Assembly (NCBI GenBank): GCA_049799955.1
Contig: JBARIW010000075.1
Location: 1-63,827, forward strand
DNA length: 63,827 nt
Source: Pyrinomonadaceae bacterium
GTDB taxonomy: Bacteria > Acidobacteriota > Blastocatellia > Pyrinomonadales > Pyrinomonadaceae
Direction of reading: 5' to 3'
Part shown: piece after piece, positions 7,126 to 40,579 of the stretch
Position numbering within the stretch: position 1 is the first letter of the stretch
How the letters are laid out: each line of letters starts with the position of its first letter
The notes under the pieces: generated by a model
Seen by the model: the letters and a program-made list of their open reading frames with translations, nothing else
What the model was told of the DNA's origin: nothing
The model's database searches: none
Translations under genes and position numbers: made by a program

Positions 7126-7223
7126 ATTCAAGATTCAAGATTCAAGATTCAAGATTCAAGATTTAAGATTTAAGATTTTGTCTTTCAATTTTGAATTTTG
7201 AATCTTGAATCTTGAATCTTGAA
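7126..7223. repeat. CAAGATT-family palindromic heptamer-repeat element (copy 1)
   Basis: (ATTCAAG)x5-ATTTAAGATTTAAGATTTT-gtctttc-AATTTTGAATTTTGAATCTTGAATCTTGAATCTTGAA; near-perfect ~45-bp arms. It sits between the stop of 7231..8280 and the start codon of phoX (7122-7124). Confidence 0.9.
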
Positions 7224-7230
7224 CTAGCTA

Positions 7231-8280
7231 CTATTTTACGTCCTCGCGCCTCGTTCCTTCAATCTCCAGAATAAAATCCGCGCCGTAGCATTTCGCCGGA
7301 GTTTGAAAACCGGCGCAAAAATTTCCCGAAAGAATCTTTCCGGCAACTTTTAGCGCGGTCTGGGCGGTCGTTGTGTAGCCTTCCGGTCCCTGCTGTCGCG
7401 CTTCGACTTTGTTTCCCTGCGCGTCCGACGCTTCGCCCCAGAGATACGTTTTGCCTTTGGCGCGTTCTTCGTCGTTCGGTCCGCCCGTCGGAATTTGTTT
7501 TTGCAGGTAACTTTGAAACGGTTTTGTCGCCAGAATCCAGCCGATATAACGGCTCATCTTTAACATTTTCAGATTTGACGCGGGCATCACCGTATAAACT
7601 TCGATGTTCGGAATTCCGGTCGAATAAAACGCGGTCGAAACGTCGCCCCAAGGAATCGTTACACCCGTTTTCTGAATTTCGCCAAAGTCGATTTCGCGTG
7701 TTTTATAAGCCGCCGGAACGCTCGTTATTTCACCATTTTTTCTAATCGCGCCGCCTTTCCCGACGTTCATCGTCATCGTCGCCTGCGTCCCGTGCGAGAT
7801 TCTGCCCATGCCGTAAAAAGCGAGCGTCAAATGCGTCGCTGCCGGCAATTTATCTTTCAGGTATTTTGCCAGACAATCCGACGGTACAACGTCAAACCCG
7901 ACGCCCGGCATAATCATAATTCCGGCTTCTTTCGCCTTTTTATCGAGCCTCGCCATCGTCTCGAAAACGGCGATTTCGCCCGTGATATCGAGATAATGAC
8001 GCTTGTTTCTGAGACACGCTTCGACCATCGGCTTTGAAGTCAAAGAAAAAGGTCCGGCGCAGTGCAGAACAAACTCCGTTTCCTGCAACGCCGCGTCAAG
8101 CTTTGCCGAATCGTTTAAATCAAAAACGCGAAAATCGAAATCGTATCGTTTCGCAAGCTCTTCGACTTTCGCCTGATTTCTGCCCGCCAGAATCGGTTTC
8201 AATCCTTGTTCAGCCGCAAAGCGCGTAATCAATTCGCCCGTGTAACCGTTTGCGCCGTAGATTAGAAAAGTTTTAGACAT
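7231..8280 (-). CDS. saccharopine dehydrogenase-like NAD(P)-binding protein
   Basis: N-terminal Rossmann motif 'LIYGANGYTGELI'; typical size (349 aa). Confidence 0.8.
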   Translation of the reverse strand: MSKTFLIYGANGYTGELITRFAAEQGLKPILAGRNQAKVEELAKRYDFDFRVFDLNDSAKLDAALQETEFVLHCAGPFSLTSKPMVEACLRNKRHYLDITGEIAVFETMARLDKKAKEAGIMIMPGVGFDVVPSDCLAKYLKDKLPAATHLTLAFYGMGRISHGTQATMTMNVGKGGAIRKNGEITSVPAAYKTREIDFGEIQKTGVTIPWGDVSTAFYSTGIPNIEVYTVMPASNLKMLKMSRYIGWILATKPFQSYLQKQIPTGGPNDEERAKGKTYLWGEASDAQGNKVEARQQGPEGYTTTAQTALKVAGKILSGNFCAGFQTPAKCYGADFILEIEGTRREDVK

Positions 8281-8409
8281 AAATTTATATTAAAGTTTTT
8301 TGCGAGATTATTATAAAGCAAAAAGTCGGTTATTTATGATATTTTCACGGTTTTCGGTTTAATCCGAAGTTAATTTGCCCGAAACTCGTTCAGATTAGCA
8401 TTTTCAGCC

Positions 8410-8649
8410 CGTAAATAAACTTTTCAACACGTAAATAGACATTTAATGTCGTAGATGAACTTTTCCACGCGTAGATGGATTTTTCCGCTCATAGATAGAC
8501 TTTGCACGCCGTACATGGAGTTTGCACACCGTAGATAGACTTAGTACGCCGTAGATGGAATAAGTACAGCTTAGATAGACTTAGTACAGTGTATATAGAC
8601 TTTTCCGCTCGTAAATGCGCTTTTCCGTTCGCAGACAGACTTTAATTTT
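8410..8649. repeat. degenerate tandem array, 12 units x 20 bp (consensus CGTAGATAGACTTTTCCACG)
   Basis: Exact 20-bp phasing from 8410 to 8649. The units are cgtaaataaacttttcaaca, cgtaaatagacatttaatgt, cgtagatgaacttttccacg, cgtagatggatttttccgct, catagatagactttgcacgc, cgtacatggagtttgcacac, cgtagatagacttagtacgc, cgtagatggaataagtacag, cttagatagacttagtacag, tgtatatagacttttccgct, cgtaaatgcgcttttccgtt and cgcagacagactttaatttt. The array is non-coding, lying between the 5' region of 7231..8280 and the stop of 8642..8845. Confidence 0.85.
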
Positions 8650-8845
8650 CGTCAGTCAAAATTTCCTGCACGCGCCCGACTTGCCCGTCCGTTAAGCGAA
8701 CTTTTATGCCGTGAGGGTGAAAGTTTGAATTGGTCAGCAAATCTTTTACCGTTCCGATTGTTTGTCTTCCGGTTCGCTGGTCTTGTTTGAGGACGATGGC
8801 GACTTTTAATCCGGCGCGGATGTTTTTTCTTTCACGATGCGGCAT
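8642..8845 (-). CDS. YwbE-like small conserved protein (DUF2196)
   Basis: 67 aa; 'TIGTVKDLLTNSNFHPHGIKVRLTDGQVGRV' resembles the YwbE family. Confidence 0.65.
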   Translation of the reverse strand: MPHRERKNIRAGLKVAIVLKQDQRTGRQTIGTVKDLLTNSNFHPHGIKVRLTDGQVGRVQEILTDEN

Positions 8846-9313
8846 TTATTTTTTCTCCAGAGTTCGCATTAAAAAAGCGATTTGTCCAAGATGATAAGCG
8901 TTGTGGTCGGCGACGAGCAAGGCTTCGCGAAAAACGGTTTGCCCGGTTCCGTGCGGGATTTTGGCGAAAAGGTCGGTTTCGTCGTCCGAGATTAAATCGC
9001 GCATCGCTTGTAAATCGTCCGAAATTTGTTTCGCCGATGTTTGCCAGTCTTCCGGCGTTCCGGTGGATTTATTCCAGTATCCGTCGGGAAATTTCGGCGA
9101 AACGTGATTCGCGTCGCGGCTAAACTCGACAATATCCCACTGCGCGATTCTGAGATGTTCGACGAGTTCCCATGCGGTGTGCGGCGCGTTTTCGAGTCTG
9201 GTGTTGATTTCTTCGACCGGAAATTCGTTCAAAACTTTTTCCAAAGCGATGTGCGCCGATTTGCCTTCGAGAAGTTCGAGCAGATGCTCGCGTATGTTTT
9301 TTTGCGTGTCCAT
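8846..9313 (-). CDS. DinB/YfiT-like four-helix-bundle metalloprotein family
   Basis: 155 aa with DinB_2-like His motifs (…HLRIAQWD…, …DHNAYHLGQIAFLMR…). Confidence 0.65.
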   Translation of the reverse strand: MDTQKNIREHLLELLEGKSAHIALEKVLNEFPVEEINTRLENAPHTAWELVEHLRIAQWDIVEFSRDANHVSPKFPDGYWNKSTGTPEDWQTSAKQISDDLQAMRDLISDDETDLFAKIPHGTGQTVFREALLVADHNAYHLGQIAFLMRTLEKK

Positions 9314-9319
9314 AATTTG

Positions 9320-10009: not shown

Positions 10010-10072
10010 TTTCGCAACAAAACTTAAAAACCTTTGTGTAACGAAAATAACAAATCTGTGAGGTAAAGAAAA

Positions 10073-16228: not shown

Positions 16229-16352
16229 ATTGGTTTCCTTAAGCTAGAAGTATAACCCGAAATTAAAAATTTGTACCTTTTTTCGCGTTTTTTGTGGTAA
16301 TCTACTGCTGAACTTAGATTTAACTAATACAAACAAGGGGATGGTAAACATA

Positions 16353-16862
16353 ATGGCAGCAAAAAAAGACAGTAAGGCATCGACAACCAAAAAATCGACT
16401 TCGACGAAATCGAAAACAACAAAAAAGAGTTCATCGGGCATCATGGATAAAGTTAAGGATGCGGCGGGTGAAATTCTGACGAATGCGGCGCAGGTTGCGG
16501 CAGCCGGAGCGTTGAATATCGCGGCTGAAGCCGTCAGCGATATGCTGAGCGGCAAAAAGAGCGGCGGAAAAAGCTCTTCGACAAAAGCCAAAACCGGCGG
16601 CGACGCGGGCACGAAGGGAACCGGAAGCGCGGGCAAATCAACAAAAAGCAGCGCAAAGAAACCCGGCGGTGATGCAGGCACAAAAGGTACGGGAAGTGCC
16701 GGAAAATCGACCAAAGCCAAAACCGGCGGAGATGCGGGAACCAAAGGAACGGGCAGCGCAGGCAAATTGACCAAAAGCGACGCAGGTAAAACGGGCGGCG
16801 ACGCCGGAACTAAAGGAACCGGAAGCGCCGGAAAAACATCGAAAAGCGGCAAAGGCAAATAA
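16353..16862 (+). CDS. Lys/Gly/Thr-rich repetitive basic protein (4 x ~19-aa 'KTGGDAGTKGTGSAGKSTK' repeats)
   Basis: SD-like caagggga upstream of ATG at 16353, with an intrinsic terminator directly after. The antisense ORF 16244..16858 is a Pro/Leu shadow of the repeats. Confidence 0.6.
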   Translation: MAAKKDSKASTTKKSTSTKSKTTKKSSSGIMDKVKDAAGEILTNAAQVAAAGALNIAAEAVSDMLSGKKSGGKSSSTKAKTGGDAGTKGTGSAGKSTKSSAKKPGGDAGTKGTGSAGKSTKAKTGGDAGTKGTGSAGKLTKSDAGKTGGDAGTKGTGSAGKTSKSGKGK

Positions 16863-16944: not shown

Positions 16945-17619
16945 TTACAATTTTAAACCGAGTCTCTCGTCTTTTTCTTTATCGGAAGAAATCCTTAAAG
17001 TGAATTTCATCAGGTTGTTTTTGTGAAATTCGTACCGCGCGAAATAGCTGAAACGATTCGTTTTCGTCGCGTCGGTTTCGTCGGGCAGCTCGACGTTTGC
17101 GAGATTATAGCTCACCGTCTCGTCGTCGCCCGTTTTAACGCGTTCGGTCGGTTCGCCTTTTTTCTTAATCACGTCTTTCGGTCCGATTATGTCGTTGCGC
17201 GTTACGCCCGGCAAGCCGATTAGCATCGACGCAGCCGATTGCTGGTAGCCGATAAAAATCTTCTTTTCGGTCTGGAAAAAACCTATTTTTTCGGCGACAT
17301 AATGCTGCGTTTGATAGCTTTTGTCCACCGCAAAAACCTCGATTTCCATAATAAAAAACGGGTCTTCCGTTGAAGCGCCGGTCAGTTTCATCACCTGCGT
17401 TCCGAATTTGTTGTAAAAGAAAAAGGCGGGTCGCCCGTCGTCCTGTTTGCGCGCCGAATATCCTTCGAGAAAAACCTTCGCCGAAGCGCGGTCGCCGAGC
17501 TTAATTTTCGAAACGCTCAATTCCGGCAGGACATTTTTTTCCTGCGCCGATACGCTAAAACCGAGAACCGCAATCATCGCCGCGCACAGCACGAGGCGAA
17601 AATATCTTTGTTTTGTCAT
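16945..17619 (-). CDS. secreted hypothetical protein
   Basis: 224 aa with signal peptide (MTKQRYFRLVLCAAMIAVLGFSVSAQE). Confidence 0.6.
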   Translation of the reverse strand: MTKQRYFRLVLCAAMIAVLGFSVSAQEKNVLPELSVSKIKLGDRASAKVFLEGYSARKQDDGRPAFFFYNKFGTQVMKLTGASTEDPFFIMEIEVFAVDKSYQTQHYVAEKIGFFQTEKKIFIGYQQSAASMLIGLPGVTRNDIIGPKDVIKKKGEPTERVKTGDDETVSYNLANVELPDETDATKTNRFSYFARYEFHKNNLMKFTLRISSDKEKDERLGLKL

Positions 17620-18110
17620 AAATCAAATACCTTTTGTTGTAAATTTAGGATGCTCTGTGGAAAGAATAAGAGGCTTAAAAAAGGAAAGCTTGTCTTATTG
17701 AAAGAGTCGAAGCAAATGCGTCGGACTAACTATATTTTACCAGATTGAGCGTGCGGCGTTCAATATAAAAAATTCCCCGGATTTACTACTCTTTGACGAG
17801 ATTTCCCGCATTAAATCGCTGGTCTATTTTCGATTTTGTCGAAGCGTCAAGCCTTTTCGCCCGTAAAATGCGCGTCGGAAATGCCCGTTTCGCTTAATAA
17901 AGGCTCTGTGTCTTCAACGTCAATCTCGCCGCTTAAAACCCGCTCCGCCCGCTGCGCGTGCATTTCTGTTTTAGTCGGGATAGAACCGAATTTTAGCAGT
18001 AAAAACGTTAATCGGGAAATTTATTCGGAAAATTAACAGACCGGCAAAATAAAAAAGGCGGAAGTTAATCTGCCTTTTCTTTGTAGAGATTTTTAACAAA
18101 CTATCTGCTA

Positions 18111-18182
18111 AAAATTCAAAACCAGCTCGTTGCTATTCTAATCGACCGAGACGCTTCCGCCATCAGTAGTTTTCAAAGAGAA
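18111..18182. repeat. decayed duplicate (about 80% identity) of the last ~70 bp of clpA, direct repeat of 18649..18725
   Basis: aaaaattcaaaac…tcgaccgaNacgcttccgccatc…agttt is shared. Copy A would encode …TDGGSVSVD* against clpA …TDGGSVSVEEKDGELVLNF*. Confidence 0.7.
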
Positions 18183-18413
18183 TCAAGCCGCAATTCTAAA
18201 ACTTTCCTGAACCGCCTGCGGCAATTCGACCGGATAAAAATAGATTGCGGGATAAAGATAATCTTCGCCCGATTCGTCAATCACGCGGATATAATCGTCT
18301 TCGGCGGCTTTTTCGTCGGGCAGGACTTCGTAGATTTTACGAAGCTGCAAATCTTCGCAGTCATCATTTTTAATACAAACTACAAAGTAAATTTTCGAAT
18401 CTTCGTTTTTCAT
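18183..18413 (-). CDS. small acidic hypothetical protein (antitoxin-like)
   Basis: 76 aa, pI clearly acidic; lies inside the short insertion between the duplicated clpA ends. Confidence 0.4.
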   Translation of the reverse strand: MKNEDSKIYFVVCIKNDDCEDLQLRKIYEVLPDEKAAEDDYIRVIDESGEDYLYPAIYFYPVELPQAVQESFRIAA

Positions 18414-18419
18414 AGTTTT

Positions 18420-18608
18420 AATCCAGATAACTCTTGATTTTCATTTTTCTTTTGCCGATGCCGTGCGCTTCATACCAATGAACTTCGACGCGACGAATTC
18501 TGCCATTTATGAGACGAACGCTTGTTTCGCCTTTCAATTTCCGCCAACGTCCTTGTCCAAACTCCCCGCGCAAACGAGCGATTTCCCTGATTTTATTCCA
18601 ATGGCAAT
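18420..18608 (-). pseudogene. basic toxin-like ORF fragment without ATG start (…RRVEVHWYEAHGIGKRKMKIKSYLD*)
   Basis: 63-codon open frame directly upstream of 18183..18413 on the same strand, with no in-frame ATG/GTG/TTG start; looks like the remnant of a toxin-antitoxin pair. Confidence 0.3.
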
Positions 18609-18652
18609 AACTTTGACATTAATAATTTCGCTGATAATTTCAAAAATCATCT

Positions 18653-20914: not shown

Positions 20915-21184
20915 CTAATTTTTTGCTGCTTCTTGATTAGCTCTTTCCTCTAACCATAAATTAACTAAAGTTTCCGTTGATACGCCTTTCTTTTCGGCAA
21001 TCGTGTGAAGCTTAGATGAAAGCGAAGTCTCAACCGCGTAATAAAAAACGTCGGATTCTAAATCAATTTCAAATTTCGCTTCCTCGGTTTTATCCCAAAC
21101 TTCGCCCAAATCGTGCGAATCCCAATACTCGCCAATTTCCTGATAAGATTTCGCTTCTGAAATTGAACTTTTATTTTCTGCCAT
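20915..21184 (-). CDS. brnA: BrnA-like antitoxin (RHH C-terminus)
   Basis: 89 aa; '…YQEIGEYWDSHDLGEVWDKTEEAKFEIDL…TLVNLWLEE' is the typical partner of BrnT. Overlaps brnT by 14 bp. Confidence 0.7.
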   Translation of the reverse strand: MAENKSSISEAKSYQEIGEYWDSHDLGEVWDKTEEAKFEIDLESDVFYYAVETSLSSKLHTIAEKKGVSTETLVNLWLEERANQEAAKN

Positions 21185-21455
21185 ACTGTTTTCTTTCCCT
21201 TTCGGTCATATCTCTTGCCGATAAAATCAAAGCGCGTCTGTCATTTTTATAGACGAAAAAACAAATCAAATAACGTCCCGAATCGGTTTGACCAAATGCC
21301 GCATATACATTTTCACCTTTTCGATGCCCTTTTTCAACAAAACGAATACGTGGATTATTGAGAAAAAGCTCGCGCACTTCTTCCGTTTCAACGGAATGTT
21401 TCCAAATCAATTTCTGAACGATTTCTTCGAGCCAAACGAATCCGGTAATTTTCAT
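21171..21455 (-). CDS. brnT: BrnT (DUF497) ribonuclease toxin
   Basis: 94 aa; MKITGFVWLEEIVQKLIWKHSVETEEVRELF … LILSARDMTERERKQY matches the BrnT pattern (W…KHG..F.E…F … IISARKAT..ER..Y). Confidence 0.8.
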   Translation of the reverse strand: MKITGFVWLEEIVQKLIWKHSVETEEVRELFLNNPRIRFVEKGHRKGENVYAAFGQTDSGRYLICFFVYKNDRRALILSARDMTERERKQYGRK

Positions 21456-21456
21456 T

Positions 21457-21789
21457 TTACTCTTCCTCGACCGTGCAGAGAAGCGGGTATTCGTGCGCCT
21501 TTGATAAATTCATCGCTTTTTCGGCTTTCATCGTGGCGACTTCGAACGAATAAACGCCCGCGACGCCAATGCCTTCGTTATGAACCTGGAACATAATCGT
21601 AAAAGCTTCGATGTCGGAGCGCATAAAGACGGTTTTGAGTATAAAAACGACAAAATCCATCGTCGTAAAATCATCGTTGTGAAGGATGACTTTATACATT
21701 TTCGGCTTTTCGAGCTTTGTCTCGCTCTCGGTCAGAACGTCGCTGTCTTGTTCAATATCGGGAAAATCCGGCATATTATCATTTATCAT
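21457..21789 (-). CDS. clpS: ATP-dependent Clp protease adaptor ClpS
   Basis: MYKVILHNDDFTTMDFVVFIL…HEYPLLCTVEEE is canonical ClpS. Confidence 0.9.
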   Translation of the reverse strand: MINDNMPDFPDIEQDSDVLTESETKLEKPKMYKVILHNDDFTTMDFVVFILKTVFMRSDIEAFTIMFQVHNEGIGVAGVYSFEVATMKAEKAMNLSKAHEYPLLCTVEEE

Positions 21790-21850
21790 TTATCATTGAA
21801 CATCTACCAAATGATTTAATAATAAATGATAAATGTTCAATGATAAATGT
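21777..21850. repeat. palindromic heptamer-repeat hairpin (ATCATTT x3 … AAATGAT) overlapping the clpS start codon
   Basis: tcatttatcattgaacat … atgttcaatgataaatg is a 17-bp perfect inverted repeat. The 5' arm encodes the clpS N-terminus MINDN. Confidence 0.85.
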
Positions 21851-22969: not shown

Positions 22970-23021
22970 AAATTATCCTCTTTAACTTTAGAGTTTAGCG
23001 TTTGTGCGGAAAAAGATTAAA

Positions 23022-23092
23022 TGCAGAGACGCTGGAGACGCGGAGAAAAGAAAATTTATTTCTTAAAATCTCTGCGTCTCCAGCGTCTTTGC
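23022..23092. repeat. GCAGAGACGC-family palindromic element (intergenic copy), terminator position
   Basis: tgcagagacgctggagacgcggaga-loop-tctctgcgtctccagcgtctttgcg; 22/25 complementary arms, and the loop is itself palindromic (aagaaa…tttctt). Confidence 0.85.
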
Positions 23093-23121
23093 GTTAAAAA
23101 AATACTTAATTTGCAATGACA

Positions 23122-26100: not shown

Positions 26101-26694
26101 CAGAACGAGCGGGTTTTCATCGTCGCCCGAAAGCCGAATCCATTCGGGAACGAGCCAATCAAGCCTGTTGATATTCTGCTTGAGCGAAGCATAGCTGGAA
26201 TCGTCCCAGTTGACGTAAAAACCGATTGCCAGGGGCTTTCCGTTTGTATTTAAAGGCGGCGTCGGCGCGGGCTTGGTCGCCAGAAACATTTCTTTGTCGG
26301 ATAATTTTTGCCGCTTGATTTCGTCTCGTTTGCTCTTTTCAAGCTTTACCTGTTTGAGCAGCGAGTCATGTTTGCCGAGTTTAGGTATTTCGGGAAGCTG
26401 AATCTGCGTGTCTTCCTGCTGCGGCAAAAGCACCGACGGTTTTAAGCGAATTTGCGGAAGAAACGGATTTATCAGGACGCTGACGACGAAAAAGACGAAA
26501 AAAGCCGTTATTACGATTGCCAGCACAAGTCCGAGATAATTAAAAACACGCCAGCGTCTGCCTTTTTTGTCAAAAAAGACAGGTTTTTTGTTGTCCAAAA
26601 GCGAATCGTTTATCATATTTTTTAAAACCAGATAATAGATGCATAAACGAGATTTGGAGGCTAATGTTTTGAGTTTTTTATTCCTCGGAAGCAA
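23122..26694 (-). CDS. tri-domain membrane polysaccharide synthase: GH18-like hydrolase domain + NodB-type (CE4) polysaccharide deacetylase + family-2 glycosyltransferase (PgaC/IcaA/NodC-like)
   Basis: 1190 aa. N-terminal TM then a GH18-like domain ([11 protein letters not shown]…[10 protein letters not shown]); CE4 NodB motifs (TFDDGP…, …[11 protein letters not shown]); GT2 (VVVPAFNEG…VVDDGSGD… with processive 'QRFRWSFG' motif) plus C-terminal TM helices. The start overlaps the upstream GH63-like gene by 17 bp. Confidence 0.8.
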
Positions 26695-29476
26695 TTTCTG
26701 AAGTTTCGATATGCCTGCCGCTTTTTTCGTCTTCGTATTCGCCGATTTGCTGTAATAATTTGCCGATTAAACCTGTCCAGCCCGTCTGATGGCTCGCGCC
26801 GAGACCTGAGCCGCGGTCGCCGTGAAAATATTCGTAAAACAAAATATAGTCGCGCCAATGTTCATCCGTTTGAAATTTTTGGGTGCTGCCGTGAACGGCG
26901 CGGATTCCTTCCTCATCTTTTAAGAAAATGTTTGAAAGACGTTTCGATAATTCCTGCGAAACTTCCCAGAGCGTCAGCATTTTTTCAGAACCTGTCGGAA
27001 ATTCGATTTTAAAGTCTTCGCCGTAAAAGAAATCGAATTTCTGTAAACTCTCGATTAAAAGATAGTTGACCGGAAACCAGATTGGACCGCGCCAGTTCGA
27101 ATTTCCGCCGAACATTCCGCTTCGGGACTCGGCAGGCTCGTATTCGACCGTGTGTTTTGTTCCATCCATTTCTAAAATGTAAGGATTTGTTTTGTGAAAG
27201 CGCGAAAGCGCGCGAATGCCGTAATCGGACAAAAACTCGGTTTCCGAGAGCATATAGCGCAAAATGCTTTGCAGTTTTTCGCGCGTAACGATTGAGAGAA
27301 TCCGCCTTTTTTCTCTGCCTTCTTCCTGCATACAGGCGATGTCGTCGGTCAAATCGGGGCGGTTTTTGAGAAACCATTCGGTTCGTTTTCTGAATTCGGG
27401 CAGATTTTCAAGCCATTCTTCTTCGATGGTTTCGACCGCGAAAAGCGGAATCAGCCCGACCATCGAGCGCAGCTTTATAGGAATATTTCGCTGAGCCGGA
27501 AGGTGCAGAACGTCGTAATAAAAACCGTCGCGCTCGTTCCAAAGCTCGGTATTTTCGTTGCCGAGATTGTTCATCGCGTCGGAAATATAAACGAAATGCT
27601 CGAAAAATTTGCTGGCGACATCTTCATAAACCTTGTCTTCTTTGGCGAGTTCGAGCGCGATTGCGAGCATATTCAGGCAATACATCGCCATCCAGCTCGT
27701 TCCGTCGGATTGTTCCAAAAATCCGCCGCCCGGCAGCTTCGTGCTGCGGTCGAAAACTCCGATATTGTCGAGTCCGAGAAATCCGCCTTCAAAAACGTTA
27801 TTGCCTTCCTCGTCCTTTCGATTCACCCACCACGTAAAATTGAGAAGCAGTTTGTGAAAAACTTTCTCCAGAAAATCACGGTCTGTCGCGCCGCGCCTTT
27901 TTGCTTCGATTTGATAAACTCTGAGCGCCGCCCACGCGTGAACCGGCGGATTGACATCGCCGAAAGCCCATTCATACGCCGGAATCTGACCGTTCGGATG
28001 CATATACCATTCGCGCAGAAGCAGAATAAGCTGCTTTTTCGCAAAATCCGAATCGACCAGCGCGAGCGGAATCGTGTGAAAAGCCAAATCCCAAGCCGCG
28101 TACCACGGATATTCCCATTTGTCGGGCATCGAGACGATATCATCGTTGTAAAGATGTTTCCAATCCTTGTTTCGCCCGCTGAATCTCTCTTTCGGCGGCG
28201 GCGAAAACGCGCTGTCGCCTTCGAGCCAGTCTTTAACGATGTATTGATAAAACTGCTTCGACCAGAGCATTCCGGCTAAGCTTTGCCGCATCACGTTTTT
28301 TTCGTCGTCGGACAAATTATTTGGAATAATTTCAGTATAAAAATCATTGGCTTCGGCAATTCGCCGCTGGAAAATCGCTTCGCAGTCGGCGATGAATTCA
28401 TCGTGGGAAATTTCGCCGCAGAGACGCAGAGACGCGGAGTTTTTTTCAATTATTTCATCTTGATTCGTTTTTGAATTTTCTCTCAGCGTCTCTGCGTCTC
28501 TGCGGTTCAAATCCTTTTTGCACAAGCGCAAGTAAATCGTTTCGCTCGAATCAGGCGCAAGTTCAAAAGCATAATGCGCGGCGGCTTTCGTTCCCGTTTG
28601 CTTTGGATTGACGGCGTTTCTGTTGCCGCCGACGACATAATCGTTGATGCCGTCTTTGGCAAAGGGCGATTTATTTTCGCCGCCGTAAAGTTTTTGAAAG
28701 TTCGTCTCGTTTTCGCAGAAAAGCAAGGTTGAAGAGCCTTCCGCGCAAAGAATATATTCGCCGATTGGAGATTCGAGATGCACTAGCGAGAGATTTTCCG
28801 CGCTCGTTTCCGCTTTTTTCAAAATCGGTTTTTTTGCGCTTTCCGTCCAAGACCAGTTATTGCGAAACCAGACGGTCGGCAAAATATGAAGCGGCGCGGG
28901 TTCTTCCGAGCGATTAAAAGCGGTGATTTTAATGCAAATATCTTCCGCGTCCGCCTTTGCGTATTCTACAAAGACATCGAAATATTTGTTTTCGTCAAAC
29001 GCGCCCGTGTCCATCAATTCAAATTCCGGCTGCGATTTGTCGCGCCGGAGATTTTCGTCTTTGAGAATTTTGTAGGGAAATTCGCTCTGCGGGTATTTGT
29101 AGAGATATTTCATGTAGGAATGCGTCGGCGTGTTGTCGAGATAAAAATAATATTCTTTTACGTCTTCGCCGTGATTTCCCTGATTACCGCCGACGCCGTA
29201 AAGTCTTTCCTTTAGAACCCGGTCTTTGCCGTTCCATAAAGATAAAGCGAAGCAGATGTGCTGTTTGCGGTCGCAAATGCCGGCGATTCCGTCTTCGTTC
29301 CAGCGATAAGTTTTCGAAACTGCCTGCTCGAACGGGAAATAATCCCACGCCGCGCCGTCAGCCGAATAATCTTCGCGCACCGTTCCCCAGGCTCGTTCCG
29401 AAACGTAACAGCCCCATTGCTTCCAGTCTTTTTCTTTTTTTCGTGCTTCTTCGAGCCGTTTTTCTTCCGCCTGCAA
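26678..29476 (-). CDS. GH63-like (MGH1/processing-alpha-glucosidase-like) glycoside hydrolase
   Basis: 932 aa; '…[17 protein letters not shown]…' N-domain and an (alpha/alpha)6-barrel-like C-domain ('[14 protein letters not shown]…'). Family assignment is from memory of the fold pattern. Confidence 0.65.
28416..28506. repeat. GCAGAGACGC-family palindromic element inserted in-frame inside the GH63-like CDS
   Basis: ccgcagagacgcagagacgcggag-43 nt-ctcagcgtctctgcgtctctgcgg; encodes …[30 protein letters not shown]… on the minus strand. Confidence 0.8.
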
Positions 29477-32600: not shown

Positions 32601-32782
32601 TTAATATCGGCTCGGAAAGCGGAACGCTCGAAGAAGCTGTTTCGGAATTGGAAACGCAGATGATAAACGATTCATTAGGAAGACATAACTGGAACATCTC
32701 AAAAGTCGCCCGTGAATTAGGCTTAACCAGACGCGGTCTGTATATGAAAATCGCCCGCTACGGCATCGAAAAATCGGCGTGA
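29693..32782 (+). CDS. sigma-54-dependent transcriptional activator with a ~650-aa N-terminal TPR-repeat sensor region
   Basis: AAA+ sigma-54 interaction domain (GESGTGKELVSRAIH; 'GSFTGA' variant of GAFTGA; ESELFGH-like) and a C-terminal Fis-type HTH (…NISKVARELGLTRRGLYMKIARYGI). Confidence 0.85.
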   Translation: MKKSSLSTKEYFKSENASHFGAKADSRFRKVRAISDEKLADNITEVRLKLDEGLSGAAEKIIRETLENFSLDAEQQATLQHLLSYTLETQGRYPEALEVIAAFEDEAALTNLKDETRIYVLVQLAISHNNQTDFPKAVALLKKSREEAEAKKLTSLLGSIFVALARVYRKLNEFPIARDHAEKALNYFREQGDWRGMAESYFLIATTLHQEGDSAKSLEYFQQAIKIIGSRSALFLLGKIYSDLSGAYWFLRRPQEGIACLEKSIKFFDRTEHKIHSIAAYNNLGINLMLLGEWTKAESVIKRALELAFETNHVHIAGILDSLGELKLLRGDLDEAQKLLERGVTIAQERKKEWYEIQASRNLARTLLAQGNLTEATERAQETIEICRRIGERQISNMASLVLAEAYLQKGKFIDCESELEAIEKNEPSSDFFVLGNVQRIRGLLSLEYRDKELAAHHFSRALTIFETAEDLYHTALAHFLVGKTVFAGEPERALKHLTSASEIFRKLDVKPLLKETQEILEELKTVETGNKTTSSAGSQLLMLRLAEATASRELLFRELVAILQQESKAKKIIVAEMNDQKRFYPFITHGYVPAESMELVSKFHEAQIKNEVEIFAKTKNLQVYQLRSPSASPAILMISPQSGAVLNDESSIQPLLRVVELGMDVCALRDKDKTNIGEQATSSFTSNSLMPGFIHSSPAMTSLVEEVYKIRSSDVTVLVTGESGTGKELVSRAIHTISSRKDKIFVPFNCTAVPKELAEGHLFGYRKGSFTGAVTDSQGMIRAADGGTLFLDEVGDLPLDVQPKLLRFLQEGEIQPLGEKRPIKVDVRIIAATNMPLEAKVADGSFREDLYYRLNVIRLRVPPLRERRSEIPPIINYYVNHYAAKFGRRNITITPQTIDLLMVCDWDGNVRQLCNEIQRVVARAEDGETITPDHLSSELKRSATPISSLATNSGNVRQIASYDKSYSSFNIGSESGTLEEAVSELETQMINDSLGRHNWNISKVARELGLTRRGLYMKIARYGIEKSA

Positions 32783-32870
32783 AGATTTAAGATTCAAGAT
32801 TTAAGATTCAAGATTTAAGATTTTGTCTTTCAATTTTGAATCTTAAATCTTGAATCTTAAATTTCGAATC
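32783..32870. repeat. CAAGATT-family palindromic heptamer-repeat element (copy 2), convergent-gene terminator position
   Basis: agatttaagattcaagatttaagattcaagatttaagatTTTGTCTTTCAATTTTGAAtcttaaatcttgaatcttaaatttcgaatc. It shares the centre ttttgtctttcaattttgaa with copy 1 and is translated as the C-terminal tail of 32808..34553. Confidence 0.9.
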
Positions 32871-34553
32871 ACAAAGAAATACGCTCAAGCTCATTAAAAT
32901 AAAGAAAACCATTGCAACTTCCTGGTCGCCGAGATTGTAATGTACAAGACCACTCGTAAAAAATCCGACTAAGCCGCCGAGCGAGCCGAGAACTACACCT
33001 TTTTCAATCAGGGAAGAGGAGAAAAGGAGAGGAGGAGAAGAGGAGATTTCTGACCGATTTGCAATAGCCTTTTCTCCTCGTCTCCTTTTCTCCTCGTCTC
33101 CTTTTCTCAAAATCAGCACTTTCGCATAACGCCACAAAATCCAGAGCCAGAGAAGCAGCGCGGGCAAACCGCGTTCGACCAGTAATTGCAAAGGCGTCGA
33201 ATGAAAATGTCCCTGCGGAAGCCGTCCGCTGTCGTATAAATTCCAGTCCTTCCAGTAGCGCTGAATCGAATCCATTCCGACGCCGAGCGTGAAATTTCGC
33301 GCATCTTGCGTCCAGAGTCGAAAACCGTCGCGCCACATCGTTTGCCGGTAAGCGGTCGAATCGTCCTTCGCGTCGAAAAACCCGACATTCCGGCTCTGCT
33401 GAAGAAAAATCAGCCCGCCGACGGCAACCGGCAAAATTATCGCGGCTAGAGCCAAAAGCAATTTGCGTCTGCCGCTTGCCAGCACGATTGCAACAGCCGA
33501 GATGAGAAATGCTAATTGCGAAGCGCGCGTAACGGTCAAAAGCAGCGCGAGCGACATCAATACTACGCAAATAAAAGTGAGAAGTGAGAAGTGAGAAGTG
33601 AAAAGTGAAGAATTAGATTTCTTTTCTTCCTTTGCGCCTTTGCGCCTTTGCGGGAAAAAACTCGCAATGAACAACCCGAATGTTAAAGATAAAATCAACT
33701 GCAAAACTTCCGCATACGTCGCGTAGTGTCCGAAAAATCCGCTTGAGCGCCAGTTTCTGCTTTTTTTCCAGCTTTGGATGCCGAGCCGTTCGAGCGCGTT
33801 CGCGCCGCTTAATAAATTCTCTCGCTTTATATCGACGGCAAATTCAAAATCCGGTCGATAAAATGTAACTTTCGAACTCTCGTTTTGCTCGATTTGCGCG
33901 ACCAAATCTTCGGGCGAGCTTAGTTTTTTGCCGTTGGCGGCGAGCAATGCGTCGCCTTCAATCAAAACGGCTTTTGCCAGAGGACTGTTTGGCGCGACGC
34001 CGTGAATCTCGACGCCGCGCCCGATTATTCGTTGAACCGGCGTCCAAAGAACGTTGACCATACACGAAAAAATCATCGCCAGCGCCAGAAATCGTACCGC
34101 GCGCTTTGTTCGGAGATTATTTATGACAAAATAAAAAATCAGAAAAAGCGCCGCGCCGCGCAGCTTATTCACGGAAATTTCGGGCGCGTAGGAAAATGCG
34201 GACGAAATGACAGACCAGCCGAAAAACGCCCACAAAGGAATGTCCAGAGCCGTCTTGACGAATTTCGGGCGCGGTTTTATAAAAAGGCGAACTATCCAGA
34301 CAAACATTCCGGTTATCCACGCCGTTTGCGAGGCGGCAATCGAATGCGGCGCGGATAAAATCATCAAAATCAGAAAAGCAAACGCGATTCGCTCACACCA
34401 TCGCGCCGCGTTGTTTTCAGTTTCGATTCCGGCTAATTCATCAAATTTTTTGAGAAAATCGCGCATAGAAAGAGAAAGTTTCCCACAAAGCGCAGAAACA
34501 CGCAAAAACAAAGCGATTTTGACATTTCCGGTTTGGCTAAAGTAGTCTGACAA
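32808..34553 (-). CDS. polytopic membrane protein, O-antigen-ligase (Wzy_C)-like with an embedded PDZ domain
   Basis: 581 aa, more than 10 TM segments. The PDZ-like segment is 'GVEIHGVAPNSPLAKAVLIEGDALLAANGKKLSSPEDLVAQIE'. Contains in-frame repeat insertions at 33003-33105 and 33573-33655. Confidence 0.5.
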   Translation of the reverse strand: MSDYFSQTGNVKIALFLRVSALCGKLSLSMRDFLKKFDELAGIETENNAARWCERIAFAFLILMILSAPHSIAASQTAWITGMFVWIVRLFIKPRPKFVKTALDIPLWAFFGWSVISSAFSYAPEISVNKLRGAALFLIFYFVINNLRTKRAVRFLALAMIFSCMVNVLWTPVQRIIGRGVEIHGVAPNSPLAKAVLIEGDALLAANGKKLSSPEDLVAQIEQNESSKVTFYRPDFEFAVDIKRENLLSGANALERLGIQSWKKSRNWRSSGFFGHYATYAEVLQLILSLTFGLFIASFFPQRRKGAKEEKKSNSSLFTSHFSLLTFICVVLMSLALLLTVTRASQLAFLISAVAIVLASGRRKLLLALAAIILPVAVGGLIFLQQSRNVGFFDAKDDSTAYRQTMWRDGFRLWTQDARNFTLGVGMDSIQRYWKDWNLYDSGRLPQGHFHSTPLQLLVERGLPALLLWLWILWRYAKVLILRKGDEEKRRRGEKAIANRSEISSSPPLLFSSSLIEKGVVLGSLGGLVGFFTSGLVHYNLGDQEVAMVFFILMSLSVFLCDSKFKIQDLRFKIERQNLKS

Positions 34554-36051: not shown

Positions 36052-36061
36052 GAATTAGCCA

Positions 36062-36128
36062 CGAACAAACACGAAAGAACACGAAAAAGAAGTAAATAAT
36101 TTTTCGTGTTCTTTTTGTGTTTGTTCGT
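36062..36128. repeat. long near-perfect hairpin (about 33-bp arms) between convergent genes
   Basis: ttagccacgaacaaacacgaaagaacacgaaaaa-gaagtaaataa-tttttcgtgttctttttgtgtttgttcgtggctaa. Confidence 0.85.
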
Positions 36129-36145
36129 GGCTAATTTCTTAACGC

Positions 36146-37911: not shown

Positions 37912-38375
37912 TTGTTTTTTTCAAATTGATACGCTTTTATCGATAAAACAATCGTCGTCGCATAACCGGAAATAACGGCGAGAACGAAGCCGATTGATGT
38001 CCAATTATCATACGAAGCATATCCGTTAAGAAAATCTTTAACAGTAATCAATGCTATCCCAAGCACCGGAAGCAGCAGAACGCCATTGTAAACGGCACTC
38101 GCAATCCATAGAGCGCGAACCCGTTTTTCCTCAAGTCTGCCGCGCGAATGCTTGAAATATCCGACAAGCAAAACGAAACCGAAGAGGAAAATCGCATAAA
38201 TTAAAAACGTGAACCACGGCGCGTCTTTTATCAACATCGACGCCGCAAACACGCCGAAACCGGCGGGAATCAGCAGCAAATAACCGGCAATTTCAAATGC
38301 TCTCGCAATTTTTTGTGAATAATTCATTTTCAATCTCCTTTGAAGCTTTTCCGGCTTCGCAAAATCTATTCGCAA
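37896..38375 (-). CDS. hypothetical membrane protein
   Basis: 159 aa, 4 hydrophobic segments. Confidence 0.5.
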   Translation of the reverse strand: MRIDFAKPEKLQRRLKMNYSQKIARAFEIAGYLLLIPAGFGVFAASMLIKDAPWFTFLIYAIFLFGFVLLVGYFKHSRGRLEEKRVRALWIASAVYNGVLLLPVLGIALITVKDFLNGYASYDNWTSIGFVLAVISGYATTIVLSIKAYQFEKNNQKYL

Positions 38376-38493
38376 CGCGTGTGCCAGTCGCTAAAAAATA
38401 CAAAACCCCTGTAATTACGACATTTTTGCGCGATTCGTTTTTTGCAAACTGACTAAAGAAAGGTCTTTTATTTTGCAAATTGACAAAAAATGT

Positions 38494-39018
38494 CTAGCGC
38501 TCAAGCAAATTTGTAGTATTTTCGGTAACGCTCGGCGGCTGAATCATTTCCGCCGTATTCAGGTTCGGCATAATCAAATCCGCCGCCGGAATGCCGCGCG
38601 CTTCGGGCAAAGCGTTTTTACCGCGTGAAGTAAATTTGGAAAATGTTTTCGAAACGGAAAAATCGTCCGTCGCAGGCGCAGAATTATCGGCGCGCAGAAA
38701 ATATTGGATTATCGGCTTAATATTTATCAAAAGCGTCAGAATAAGCCACGCTGCGAAGAGCAAAACGATGCGCGAGCTGTGCGAAGGCGGCATATCGACC
38801 GTAATTGCCGCCGCGATAAGCGCGAAAAAGAACATAACGCCCGCGCCGATGGTCATATCGCGCTTGCGCAAACTGCGGTCTGCCTTTTGAATTTCGGCGG
38901 GTTGCGGCGCGTCGTCGCTCGCGAGCAGCGCTTTGACGATGTTTAGCTGAAAACCGCAGCGCGAGCAAAATCTGGTTTCATCGGAAATCTGTTGTTGACT
39001 GCATTTTGGACAGAACAT
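38494..39018 (-). CDS. zinc-ribbon domain membrane protein
   Basis: N-terminal CPKC…CSRCG zinc ribbon followed by 2 TM helices. Confidence 0.55.
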   Translation of the reverse strand: MFCPKCSQQQISDETRFCSRCGFQLNIVKALLASDDAPQPAEIQKADRSLRKRDMTIGAGVMFFFALIAAAITVDMPPSHSSRIVLLFAAWLILTLLINIKPIIQYFLRADNSAPATDDFSVSKTFSKFTSRGKNALPEARGIPAADLIMPNLNTAEMIQPPSVTENTTNLLER

Positions 39019-39088
39019 AAAAACCTCGCAAGTTTTCGAATTTGAGAAGAACCGTTTTAAGAAATTACGAAACGCGGGCGGATAAAGT

Positions 39089-39466
39089 TCATTCGTGAAA
39101 GATTAATTTCTTTTCCAGCCGGAAACGATAAAAAAGAAATGATAAAGCAACACCGGCAAAACTTGCCAGAATGTCGAGATAATCAAACGTTTCCGCGCCT
39201 TCAAAAGGTCTTATAATCTCAAAACCGATTAAAAGCAGAAGCGTCGCAATACACGATAATGCGAAATATTTTCGGGCTTCAGTTAATGTCAAAAGCTTCG
39301 GGCGAATAAGGACGCAAAACGGGAAACAGAATCCGATAATCAAATTTGGAGCCGAATCAAGAAAAACTGAATGAACTCCGAGACGCGGTCGCGCAAATTG
39401 CTGAATAAAAAGCACTATTAAACCGCTCGAAAAAGAAATCAGAAGCGGGAGAATATTAAAATTCAT
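39089..39466 (-). CDS. VanZ-like small membrane protein (tentative)
   Basis: 125 aa, 4 TM, with the 'DYLDILASFAGVALSFL' C-terminal motif seen in the VanZ-like family. Confidence 0.4.
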   Translation of the reverse strand: MNFNILPLLISFSSGLIVLFIQQFARPRLGVHSVFLDSAPNLIIGFCFPFCVLIRPKLLTLTEARKYFALSCIATLLLLIGFEIIRPFEGAETFDYLDILASFAGVALSFLFYRFRLEKKLIFHE

Positions 39467-40468
39467 TTAATTATTTTCGCTCAAACTTAACTCCTCGCCT
39501 GCTTCGATTTGCCTTTTGCTGTCGCGGCAAAAATCCGAGACGACGCGGGCGAAGAGTTCGGGCTTTTCTTCCTGCGGAACGTGCCCGCAGTTTTTGAAAA
39601 AGACGAGGCGCGAATTCAAAATCGAATCAAAAAGCTTTTCGCCGTTGTGAGGATGAATAACCGTGTCTTTTTCGCCCCAGATAATCAAGGTCGGCTGTTT
39701 GATATACTGCGCGTCGTCCTGAATCCGGCAGGCGTCCCACGCGCGAGCCGTTTCCAGAAACGAATGATGCGCGTCCGCCGCCGCCTGCGGGCGATGAACC
39801 GATTCGAGGCGGTCTTTTGTAATAAGATGATGATTTTCCGGCGCGAGCGTATTTTGCATCCGATATTTGAGGAAAAATTTTGAATCGACCAGAAACGGCG
39901 CGAGAAGCTCGCCTACGCCCGGAATCGCCGTAAGTTTCAGAATTGGATGACTCAAAGCTTCGTCATTGCAGACTGCATCGACCAGAACGAGCTTTTCGAC
40001 GCGTTCGGGATAATCGAGCGCGACGGTCGAAGCCACCGCGCCGCCGTAAGAACTGCCGACAATCGTTGCTTTGCCGATGCCGAGACGATTCATAAAACGC
40101 TCGATTACGTGTGCCTGCGAAGCAATCGAATAATCAAACCAAGCGGGTTTGTCCGAGTAGCCGAAGCCGATTAAATCAAGCGCGACGACGTGAAAGCCCT
40201 CGTCAGCGAAAGCCGGCGCAACCGAATGCCATACAAACGTCGAAGCTGTATAGCCGTGAATAAGCAGCAATGTCGGGTCGCTTTCGTCACCAAATTCCTG
40301 AAAATGAATGGTCGCGCCGTCAATTTCCACAAAATGCGAATTTTCCGCGTGATGAATCTTATCGGCATAGTCGCTCCAGTTAACGCTTCCGGCGCGAGTC
40401 AAAAACTTCCAAGCCAAAGCCGCGCCGATTGCGCCGCCGACACCTAAAGCCAAATTTTTCTTGTTCAT
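39467..40468 (-). CDS. alpha/beta-fold hydrolase
   Basis: HGYTASTF…GSSYGG nucleophile motif. Start placed at the first ATG (the ORF-finder TTG start is at 40489). Confidence 0.8.
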   Translation of the reverse strand: MNKKNLALGVGGAIGAALAWKFLTRAGSVNWSDYADKIHHAENSHFVEIDGATIHFQEFGDESDPTLLLIHGYTASTFVWHSVAPAFADEGFHVVALDLIGFGYSDKPAWFDYSIASQAHVIERFMNRLGIGKATIVGSSYGGAVASTVALDYPERVEKLVLVDAVCNDEALSHPILKLTAIPGVGELLAPFLVDSKFFLKYRMQNTLAPENHHLITKDRLESVHRPQAAADAHHSFLETARAWDACRIQDDAQYIKQPTLIIWGEKDTVIHPHNGEKLFDSILNSRLVFFKNCGHVPQEEKPELFARVVSDFCRDSKRQIEAGEELSLSENN

Positions 40469-40475
40469 AATTGTA

Positions 40476-40579
40476 AATTCAAGATTCAAAAGATTTAAGA
40501 TTCAAGATTCAAGATTCAAGATTGGGAATGCTGTTTTCTAATCTTAAATTTTAAATCTTAAATTTTGAATCTTAATTTT
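40476..40579. repeat. CAAGATT-family palindromic heptamer-repeat element (copy 3)
   Basis: aaattcaagattcaaaagatttaagattcaagattcaagattcaagatt-gggaatgctgttttct-aatcttaaattttaaatcttaaattttgaatcttaatttt. It lies between the truB stop and the start of the alpha/beta hydrolase gene. Confidence 0.9.

Follow-up and report, generated by a model that had tools for sequence, protein, structure and literature searches.

Results

Three inverted heptamer arrays at gene ends

The window analysed here is an entire contig (JBARIW010000075.1; 63,827 nt) of a metagenome-assembled genome (MAG) from a Pyrinomonadaceae bacterium (Acidobacteriota, Blastocatellia), a soil acidobacterium. It contains three loci, here called the CAAGATT loci, each with the same layout: five to seven tandem copies of (C/T)AAGATT, a short core, and 4-5.5 reverse-complement copies.

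7126-7223: copy 1, a (YAAGATT)7-core-(AATYTTG)5 hairpin that fills the spacer between the stop of a saccharopine-dehydrogenase-like gene and the start of PhoX, both genes on the minus strand
32783-32870: copy 2, a YAAGATT hairpin between the convergent genes of a sigma-54 activator (plus strand) and Wzy_C (minus strand)
40476-40579: copy 3, a YAAGATT hairpin that fills the spacer between TruB and an alpha/beta-hydrolase gene (minus strand)

We located repeats by direct reading of the sequence, Tandem Repeats Finder (TRF) and an inverted-repeat search. On the plus strand, TRF placed the arms of copy 1 at 7126-7177 (7.4 units of ATTCAAG) and 7187-7223 (5.3 units of AATCTTG), those of copy 2 at 32782-32823 (6 units) and 32832-32870, and those of copy 3 at 40477-40523 (6.4 units) and 40540-40580; over the three loci it reported 5.1-7.4 copies with 79-97 % matches. 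All three are heptameric long simple sequence repeats (long SSRs), with at least three near-perfect head-to-tail copies of a unit of 5-11 nt. The 13-mer AAGATTYAAGATT, with at most one mismatch, occurs 25 times in the window, always within these loci, against 0.52 occurrences expected from shuffles.

Every CAAGATT locus folds as a 42-bp hairpin with a near-perfect, AT-rich stem (29 % GC, the unit having one G and one C per seven bases). Predicted RNA folding energies for the plus and minus strands, with z-scores against dinucleotide shuffles, are -53.5/-47.4 kcal/mol for copy 1 (z -10.2), -45.8/-38.5 kcal/mol for copy 2 (z -9.8/-9.0) and -31.9/-32.2 kcal/mol for copy 3 (z -6.8). The original prediction that these loci are inverted heptamer arrays forming near-perfect hairpins is thereby borne out by reading, TRF, inverted-repeat search and folding (z -6.8 to -10.2).

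Its placement of the loci at gene ends is also correct, as we found by checking the stop and start codons at all three copies. Copy 1 has the TAG of the saccharopine-dehydrogenase-like gene (7231-7233, minus strand) on one side and on the other the PhoX ATG at 7124, which is the true start because it opens the Tat signal MDRRSFLYRLGL... Copy 2 begins inside the TGA (32780-32782) of the sigma-54 activator gene, and its 3' arm is read through by the last 20 codons of the convergent Wzy_C open reading frame (ORF; stop 32808), so that it does form a translated C-terminal tail, as had been claimed. A T/C alternation in the 5' arm of copy 2 is mirrored by an A/G alternation in its 3' arm, with a period of 14. 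Copy 3 is bounded by the stop codon of TruB (40578-40580) and by the ATG of the hydrolase gene (40468). Copies 1 and 2 have in common an identical 32-nt core, AAGATTTAAGATTTTGTCTTTCAATTTTGAAT, which contains the 20-nt sequence originally described as their shared loop; the sharing holds, and extends further, but most of this "loop" is paired stem in the fold (AAGAU-UUU-GUCUU). An independent short-read assembly, Logan contig SRR28041861_3291 (L001), is 100 % identical to the window over 13.1 kb and ends inside copy 2 (32811).

A larger class of hairpins built from other units

The window contains 11 long hairpins, defined as having arms of at least 20 nt, against 0.4 in shuffles (shuffle maximum 2). 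Most have tandem units of 7-10 nt that differ by locus. Eight accompany the CAAGATT loci:

5642-5719: unit AGTGAAY (7 nt), separating the PhoX stop from a 78-aa ORF in convergent orientation
21776-21846: unit TTATCAT (7 nt), in the spacer between the ADH stop and the ClpS start; among the few with a pyrimidine-rich 5' arm
23017-23098: GCAGAGAC-type 8-mer units, in the spacer between a glycosyltransferase stop and the ADH start
28416-28505: unit CGCAGAGA (8 nt; GCAGAGAC-type), in frame in a 932-aa GH63/MGH1-like glycoside hydrolase (GH) ORF (26678..29476), amino acids 324-354, in an interdomain linker
33013-33106: unit GAGGAGAA (8 nt), in frame in Wzy_C, in a lineage-variable loop, encoding KGDEEKRRRGEK...SSSPPLLFSSS
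36053-36136: CACGAAMAAA 10-mer units, in the convergent Abhydrolase_2/Peptidase_M43 spacer
60236-60311: unit AATTGAT (7 nt), in a convergent spacer; 28 of 28 positions complementary, with an A-run and a T-run at the stem base
63340-63425: RACAGGRAT 9-mer units, in a convergent spacer after a Peptidase_M14 gene

Because most window hairpins are built alike from other units, the three CAAGATT loci are a subset of a general hairpin class and not a stand-alone element. Other types also recur. Hairpins resembling 23017-23098 stand at another locus in two relatives (L119 5435-5524 and L120 9270-9383). The hairpin at L005 3448-3542 is 79 % identical to window 63340-63425 and lies behind a non-orthologous gene, and the RACAGGRAT unit is found again at L121 3471-3542 and at L122 2413-2495 and 9249-9366, with the same three-unit layout and non-orthologous genes; some hairpin types besides CAAGATT, such as RACAGGRAT, thus behave as recurrent families. 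A search of the whole window with Rfam at gathering thresholds returned tRNA-Met alone, with no family matching any hairpin.

We compared the window with syntenic DNA of five relatives: L123; L119 and L124, which are one contig; L120 and L125, one contig; L121 and L126, one contig (genome D); and L122. L123 has 91 % nucleotide identity to the window, and across the relatives TruB is 75-83 % and PhoX 77-95 % identical to the window proteins. A census of 212 kb from six genomes, with contexts taken from the gene calls returned with the loci, yielded 46 long hairpins, about one per 5 kb. Tandem-repeat arms are present in 35 of them; the period is 7 nt in 27, 8 nt in five, 9 nt in two and 10 nt in one. 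Their contexts are strongly skewed: 16 are convergent, 24 co-directional (one with an unknown partner), five in or overlapping ORF calls, and one divergent. In-frame read-through was verified for four of the five ORF-overlapping hairpins. The remaining one, L120 5023-5064, has arms that are not tandem repeats and falls within a gene call that is fragmented. YAAGATT is one of at least ten unit types, mostly of 7 nt, in a lineage-wide class.

Position and polarity of these hairpins both resemble those of terminators. They are stable stem-loops, nearly all of them directly downstream of stop codons where the spacer is convergent or co-directional. Within the window, six of the 12 convergent junctions carry very strong structure, as against none of the 10 divergent spacers. 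Five of the six are array-type; the last is a canonical terminator, AAAAGGCTGG...CCAGCCTTTT at 46321-46350, which fills the equivalent niche. Where the flanking genes are co-directional, only 1-7 nt separate the end of the hairpin from the following start codon, and reading of the sequence reveals no Shine-Dalgarno-like sequence in the gap. The 5' arm is purine- or A-rich in 43 of the 46 hairpins and the 3' arm T- or pyrimidine-rich, a polarity that is identical on both strands because the arms are complementary. Nearly every unit consists of an A-run and three to five other bases (AAAAGGY, AAAGTTC, AAGATTC, AATTACG). In sequence the units recall one side of a bidirectional terminator such as AAAAGGCTGG...CCAGCCTTTT, its A-tract together with half of the stem, and AAAAGGY, for instance, looks like its amplified half. 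Stems of the class are 25-42 bp long and often AT-rich, and U-runs are spread through the 3' arm.

Persistence of hairpins through sequence replacement

At orthologous sites it is the hairpin, and not the CAAGATT sequence, that is conserved, with unit number, loop and unit identity all changing. The sites of copies 2 and 3 are filled in some relatives and empty in L121. At the copy 3 site there are 5/6.5 units per arm in the window, 3.5/5.5 in L119, 5/4 in L120 and 2.5 in L122; the loop is not the same in these genomes, and a variant unit in L120, TAGGATT, is compensated by AATCCTA in the opposite arm. The copy 2 site has an ortholog in L119 (16224-16296) with a different loop. Since both are orthologous in relatives with other loops and unit counts, copies 2 and 3 evolved in place, and they are old and vertically inherited. 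Unit count per arm varies continuously, from 2.5 to 7, and comparison of filled with empty (L121) sites revealed neither the target-site duplication nor the constant boundaries that would be expected of a miniature inverted-repeat transposable element (MITE).

Elsewhere the unit itself has been exchanged. The copy 1 site carries a hairpin in every genome compared, with unit TTCAAGA in the window, GTTCAAA in L123, L124 and L125, and GAAAATG in L126. Likewise, the site after the PhoX stop has AGTGAAY in the window (5642-5719), GTTCAAA in L123, L124 and L125, and AAAAGGY in L126, so that both PhoX flanks have hairpins in five of five genomes with three unit types each. In the convergent M43/hydrolase spacer a hairpin is present in four of four genomes, again with three unit types: (AATTACG)n in L119 and L120, (AAAAGGT)n in L121 and CACGAAMAAA in the window. 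The TruB/hydrolase spacer has one in four of five genomes and the sigma-54 activator/Wzy_C spacer in two of three. Overall, about 23 of 27 orthologous 3' spacers keep a hairpin despite complete unit replacement. When 7.5 kb of the window are aligned with L123, the two PhoX-flank hairpins stand out as the only strongly divergent segments, with 22-38 % local identity against 92 % outside.

By parsimony, GTTCAAA was probably ancestral at both PhoX sites and was replaced at both in the window lineage, which would make CAAGATT at copy 1 derived. Copy 2 is older than copy 1, because it is present in L119. Given this greater age and the 32-nt shared core, the simplest account of the shared core would be that copy 1 was copied from a copy-2-like donor.

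Arrays and hairpins within genes

Arrays of the same kind are also found in coding sequence:

40996-41026, minus strand: (GTTCAAA)x4.4 in TruB, encoding VQSSKFKVQSS
41199-41229, minus strand: (GAATTAC)x4.4 in TruB, encoding ELRITNYELR
33575-33652, minus strand: two one-armed arrays, AAGTGAG x4.9 and CCTTTGCG x3 (plus-strand letters) in Wzy_C, at the site of a complete 8-mer hairpin in L119 (15460-15539)

Both TruB arrays are perfect, in frame and 31 nt long (10 nt plus three units). The peptide ELRITNYELR is the array read in all three frames and is present in most Pyrinomonadaceae TruB proteins; the GAATTAC array DNA is perfect in the window and L119, decays in L120 and L122, and is replaced by (AAAGGCA)n in L121. 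That unit belongs to a family that genome D also uses in hairpins (AAAAGGY), and the GAATTAC and GTTCAAA units are common to hairpins and coding arrays in the other genomes. In two TruB proteins, P0008 and P0011, a RITNYEL array occupies the other of the two sites.

Wzy_C (ORF 32808..34553, minus strand; O-antigen-ligase-like) has two variable segments encoded by arrays, with conserved protein sequence on either side of them, and its orthologs have other array-encoded peptides at both variable loops. In the hairpin at 33013-33106 the purine-rich arm encodes K/E/R/G, a charged loop, and the pyrimidine-rich arm encodes S/P/L/F, which is membrane-helix-like. The 28416-28505 hairpin, with arms of 24 bp, is translated as part of the GH63-like ORF. 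Native sequence of this ORF just upstream of the hairpin (YLRLC, GCGCCTCTGC) resembles the 3'-arm unit, and there are hints that this hairpin may have originated by local inverted duplication. In the AlaRS of L121 (4648-4723) a perfect (AGTCGAG)n hairpin forms a 22-aa in-frame insert that the window AlaRS does not have, and L122 has a different insert, of 44 aa, in that loop. Because tandem arrays and hairpins lie inside genes as well as between them, we conclude that the array-making process acts everywhere and that selection decides where its products stay.

A 9-mer array, (GAAACCACA)x3 at 5455-5481, lies in the conserved 78-aa ORF convergent with PhoX, where it encodes ETTETTETT; gene calls in all relatives include this ORF, whose 3' flank shows high conservation.

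YAAGATT arrays beyond the lineage

Across 185,579 species genomes we found YAAGATT arrays at no fewer than 117 loci in many phyla. At least 17 of the matches listed are palindromic, all of them (YAAGATT)n...(AATYTTR)n, and none of those listed has the reverse order. The cross-phylum loci among the matches listed also hold about 100 heptamer arrays of other units, and in viral contigs YAAGATT accounts for 39 stretches against 64, 106 and 112 for three composition-matched permuted heptamers. Because permuted heptamers are commoner and other units abundant, the wide occurrence of YAAGATT reflects a general heptamer-SSR background. We rejected a single ancient or horizontally spread YAAGATT family on the same grounds: permuted heptamers are at least as common in viral contigs, and other heptamers abound in the same loci. 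The core of copies 1 and 2 (AAGATTTTGNNNTTCAATTNNGAATYTT) had no exact match in JGI metagenomes.

Two of the cross-phylum loci, L054 and L072, are in co-directional spacers, and some others carry their YAAGATT hairpins in verified divergent spacers, so the 3'-end location is a strong bias in the Pyrinomonadaceae lineage and not a law. In gammaproteobacterial MAGs (L004, L018, L113 and L117), such as those of Thioalkalivibrio and Thiohalomonas, a GC-rich inner stem (for example ...TTCAAAGGG...CCCTTTGAA...) is enclosed by (CAAGATT)n and (AATYTTG)n, which gives the impression that the arrays there have taken the place of the A- and T-tracts of an ordinary terminator.

Comparison with known repeat systems

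The closest published precedent is the inverted GGGAATC arrays of Xanthomonas (PMC4692102). Each genome has 70-75 convergent inverted pairs, which are capable of forming stem-loops, lie close to or overlap stop codons and have the same gene context between species in 83 % of cases while differing in repeat length; whether an array is single or inverted is usually preserved between species (Rehm et al., 2015; PMC4692102). Our loci likewise consist of two convergent arrays of one heptamer, close together, at or overlapping stops, in conserved contexts with variable length. Xanthomonas, however, has one G-rich unit per genome (GGGNATC, studied for its G-quadruplex potential), whereas here the units are AT-rich and at least ten types coexist. 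Further differences from Xanthomonas are the exchange of units at orthologous sites, the presence of in-frame arrays and hairpins within genes, and the host phylum, here Acidobacteriota. The many unit types per genome, their wholesale replacement at conserved sites and the repertoire shared between hairpins and coding arrays go beyond the precedent. No report of such hairpins for Pyrinomonadaceae or Acidobacteria was found in the literature collection searched.

Long SSRs with units of 5-11 nt, such as the cyanobacterial short tandemly repeated repetitive (STRR) sequences and TAACTGA of the Beggiatoaceae, are mostly heptameric and intergenic, often adjoin start or stop codons and have a sporadic phylogenetic distribution, according to PMC4679880, which attributes the heptamer excess to polymerase slippage (Mrazek, 2007, as cited there). 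They are almost always one-armed direct arrays, the BOGUAY genome having one inverted case among 170 repeat sets (PMC4679880), whereas at the gene ends studied here arrays normally take the palindromic, two-armed form. The resemblance to cyanobacterial STRR seen in the original prediction is accurate at this level, as our loci are of the same general kind as these and other long SSRs. STRR proper have cyanobacterial hosts and consensus units CCCCAGT and others; a Pyrinomonadaceae host and the unit YAAGATT set our loci apart from them.

Repetitive extragenic palindromic (REP) sequences are imperfect palindromes of 20-40 nt with a conserved GTAG/CGTC head and an associated REP-associated tyrosine transposase (RAYT; Y1, IS200-like), as described in PMC3733652. 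The hairpins are like REP sequences and bacterial interspersed mosaic elements (BIMEs) in being extragenic palindromes at gene 3' ends with a proposed terminator or mRNA-stabiliser role. Unlike them, the CAAGATT hairpins have arms of 5-7 tandem heptamers (37-47 nt) that begin TTCAAG..., no GTAG/CGTC head and variable length. No Y1/RAYT transposase was found among the ~45 of 59 window ORFs scanned against Pfam; with no such transposase in the scanned ORFs and no target-site duplications, we rejected both the REP/RAYT and the MITE readings.

Rickettsia palindromic elements (RPEs) are palindromic repeats in frame in unrelated housekeeping genes, and SPRITE is a repeated rho-independent-terminator-like element (PMC10969869). 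In-frame palindromes within genes characterise our class too (Wzy_C, GH and AlaRS), and among the CAAGATT loci only the Wzy_C tail in copy 2. RPEs, however, form families of ~150 bp with a conserved consensus and encoded peptide, whereas here only the unit is common and loops and lengths differ. Canonical bidirectional terminators occupy the same niche with the same polarity (A-rich 5', T-rich 3') and are symmetric for both directions; their stems are 5-15 bp and GC-rich with a discrete U-tract, in contrast to the hairpins described here, with 25-42 bp and U-runs through the 3' arm. We also dismissed a resemblance to integron attC sites, where each gene is followed by a palindrome: the neighbouring genes here are housekeeping genes in conserved synteny, and on visual inspection the arms do not match RYYYAAC/GTTRRRY cores.

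Other features of the window

The spacer on the upstream side of the saccharopine-dehydrogenase-like gene (565 nt) contains, at 8450-8602, a 20-nt unit (CGTAGATGGACTTTGCACGC) repeated in tandem about 5.5 times with 73-83 % matches; this array, which is not of the hairpin type, could be regulatory. Repeats of 60, 69 and 129 nt at 16578-16848 lie in an ORF (16244..16858) that has no Pfam match and apparently encodes a low-complexity protein. The gene map has a 1-kb stretch without an ORF of at least 90 aa at 17620-18652, within which 18408-18486 is 79 % identical to L030 4395-4476, from another Acidobacteriota MAG; Rfam in E-value mode over 17600-18700 gave no match above noise at E up to 1.

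Between TruB and RecX (41478-42271) lie a HigB-type toxin gene (41972..42271) and a 132-aa ORF. Because RecX and TruB are direct divergent neighbours in L119, L120, L121 and L122, this segment looks like a toxin-antitoxin insertion. A BrnT/CopG pair (20915..21455) is found between ClpA and ClpS. The part of the window with the lowest GC content (41 %, at 54-56 kb) contains a DDE_Tnp_1 transposase (53718-54773) that belongs to an ordinary insertion sequence (IS) unrelated to the hairpins.

Discussion

Probable terminator-like structures with replaceable sequence

We favour, with moderate confidence, the reading that heptamer-array 3'-end hairpins are terminator-like or 3'-end-protecting RNA structures whose sequence is replaceable, and that they are not transposable elements. 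Such a terminator or stabiliser function is suggested by their position, their arm polarity and the persistence of the hairpin in place despite sequence replacement. The REP/BIME-like role originally proposed is thus still the most reasonable functional guess (structure at six of 12 convergent against none of 10 divergent window spacers; 16 convergent hairpins against one divergent in the census), although a family of REP-like repeats is not supported.

In this model, stem-loops in the transcript would act as factor-independent, bidirectional terminators or as 3'-end protectors. They may derive from ordinary A-tract/stem/T-tract terminators in which an "A-run plus half-stem" unit became amplified, and replication slippage of the unit would let the arrays grow and shrink. 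The arms would be kept complementary by arm-to-arm templating (quasipalindrome template switching), by selection for pairing, or by both. Occasionally one hairpin would be overwritten by the sequence of another, as may have happened when the GTTCAAA hairpin at the copy 1 site gave way to a copy-2-like CAAGATT hairpin. Three patterns point to such templating and ectopic overwriting: the mirrored period-14 pattern of copy 2, the compensated units and the cassette-like replacements.

A number of observations weigh against terminator-like function. Half of the convergent window junctions have no hairpin, and in L121 the hairpin is precisely absent from the copy 2 site and missing at the copy 3 site, where a 20-nt spacer stands in its place; the hairpins are therefore dispensable at some sites. 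Others are within ORFs (Wzy_C, GH, AlaRS). In the relatives, the (AATCGTG)n hairpin at L120 9934-9996, which takes up the divergent spacer (81 nt) that separates the RecX start from the TruB start, is the sole clear exception to the 3'-end rule, and divergent spacers verified by a Pfam check carry such hairpins in L005, L027 and L004. In co-directional spacers, with the stem only 1-7 nt from the start, neither a promoter nor an unstructured region for ribosome binding would fit. Nor is there a GC-rich stem followed immediately by a U-tract, the 3' arms being U-rich with no discrete tract. A consensus terminator scan, which is uninformative for long AT-rich stems, flagged none of the three CAAGATT loci and only 5657-5704 of the class, and the canonical terminator sites it found in the window were not enriched over shuffles. 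RNA duplexes of such length would be RNase III substrates in model bacteria. At seven of the 11 window hairpins, G.U-compatible mismatches make the plus-strand RNA 3-10 kcal/mol more stable, whereas most flanking genes are on the minus strand. Finally, the slippage, templating and overwriting steps are read from their presumed end states. We discarded G.U wobble as a strand test for RNA-level function: the asymmetry fits neither gene orientation nor a leading-strand C-to-T bias, and GC skew is negative.

Alternative explanations

The hairpins could instead be largely non-functional by-products, with heptamer slippage and palindrome-templated copying inflating any small seed, palindrome or repeat, and selection purging the results only from places where they do harm, such as promoters and constrained coding sequence, so that they would accumulate at 3' ends and in protein loops. 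We think this unlikely, though it deserves to be taken seriously. It would accommodate the unit families shared with in-frame arrays in TruB and Wzy_C, the other-unit hairpins in Wzy_C, GH and AlaRS, and the arrays that fill spacers right up to stop and start codons. Some orthologous sites are empty without visible consequence, half of the convergent junctions are bare, and some hairpins do lie in divergent spacers (L120 9934-9996; L005, L027, L004); heptamer arrays also dominate many unrelated genomes, and YAAGATT is nothing special. A purely neutral process, however, does not predict an arm polarity of 43 in 46, and the by-product account is further opposed by the retention of a hairpin in about 23 of 27 orthologous 3' spacers through complete unit replacement, by the compensation of variant units and by a convergent-to-divergent ratio of 16:1.

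A more active process is conceivable but in our view rather improbable: a templated "array-rewriting" in Pyrinomonadaceae, and perhaps in other heptamer-rich bacteria, in which template switching between distant hairpins or a dedicated enzyme would overwrite hairpins and protein loops alike. It would fit the wholesale exchange of units at two sites between genomes that are 91 % identical, the 32-nt core that copy 1 has in common with the older copy 2, and the unit families that hairpins and coding arrays of one genome share. If it operated, it would amount to a transposase-free concerted evolution of terminator-like hairpins with a genome-specific unit repertoire, and would generate new peptide segments in essential proteins (TruB, AlaRS, Wzy_C).

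We give still less credence to RNase III-type processing or translation control, in which cleavage of an inter-cistron duplex would uncouple message stability and free the downstream start region. The near-perfect 42-bp stems suit this explanation, as do co-directional stems that end 1-7 nt before an ATG with no visible Shine-Dalgarno-like sequence between, and MacGregor proposed post-transcriptional roles for TAACTGA heptamers that end 1 nt before start codons (PMC4679880). But 16 of the 46 hairpins are at convergent ends, with no downstream cistron, and neither the polarity nor the coding copies would be explained.

The original prediction of a dispersed repeat family would make the loci a mobile or REP/MITE-like "CAAGATT element" inserting after stop codons, a reading that now seems very unlikely. 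In its favour are three copies in 64 kb with a common unit, two of them with a common 32-nt core, the break of the Logan assembly at copy 2, the presence or absence of hairpins between L121 and the others at two sites, and the recurrence of several hairpin types at non-orthologous loci, such as RACAGGRAT (window, L005, L121, L122). Yet there is no target-site duplication or defined end, and length forms a continuum of 2.5 to 7 units. Both copy 2 and copy 3 have orthologs in relatives and have changed in place, while the copy 1 site already held a hairpin of another unit. No Y1/RAYT transposase was seen among the ~45 of 59 window ORFs scanned, where the only transposase is that of the ordinary DDE IS, and the core motif has no exact match in JGI metagenomes. 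What survives of the claim to a true repeat family is the relation of copies 1 and 2, whose 32-nt core points to recent copying; a shared unit as such is weak evidence of common descent. The accompanying statement that no named family matches is roughly right, but overlooks the published precedent of the inverted Xanthomonas arrays (PMC4692102). Lastly, the arrays are hardly likely to be binding sites for a heptamer-recognising DNA- or RNA-binding protein: their regular 7-nt periodicity and the use of the same units at several loci per genome would fit, but unrelated units at an orthologous site and at least ten unit types per genome argue against any conserved sequence-specific reader, and 7-nt spacing does not match helical phasing.

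Implications

The arrays have practical consequences for the description of these genomes. They break short-read assemblies, as in the Logan contig that ends inside copy 2, and they lengthen or shorten ORF calls, as in the Wzy_C tail and a 501-aa PhoX call in L126. If the hairpins are working terminators or 3'-end protectors in this little-studied soil lineage, as we favour, then predictors tuned to a GC-rich stem and U-tract would miss them and operon maps of Acidobacteriota would be wrong.

The hairpins also offer a clean natural case in which structure is kept while sequence is replaced, with three unrelated units in one spacer among close relatives. Such spacers would allow slippage, palindrome-templated repair and ectopic copying to be studied in non-coding DNA. 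Within genes, the in-frame arrays and hairpins of TruB, AlaRS, Wzy_C and the glycoside hydrolase show that simple-sequence repeats supply conserved proteins with new loop and transmembrane-like peptide segments.

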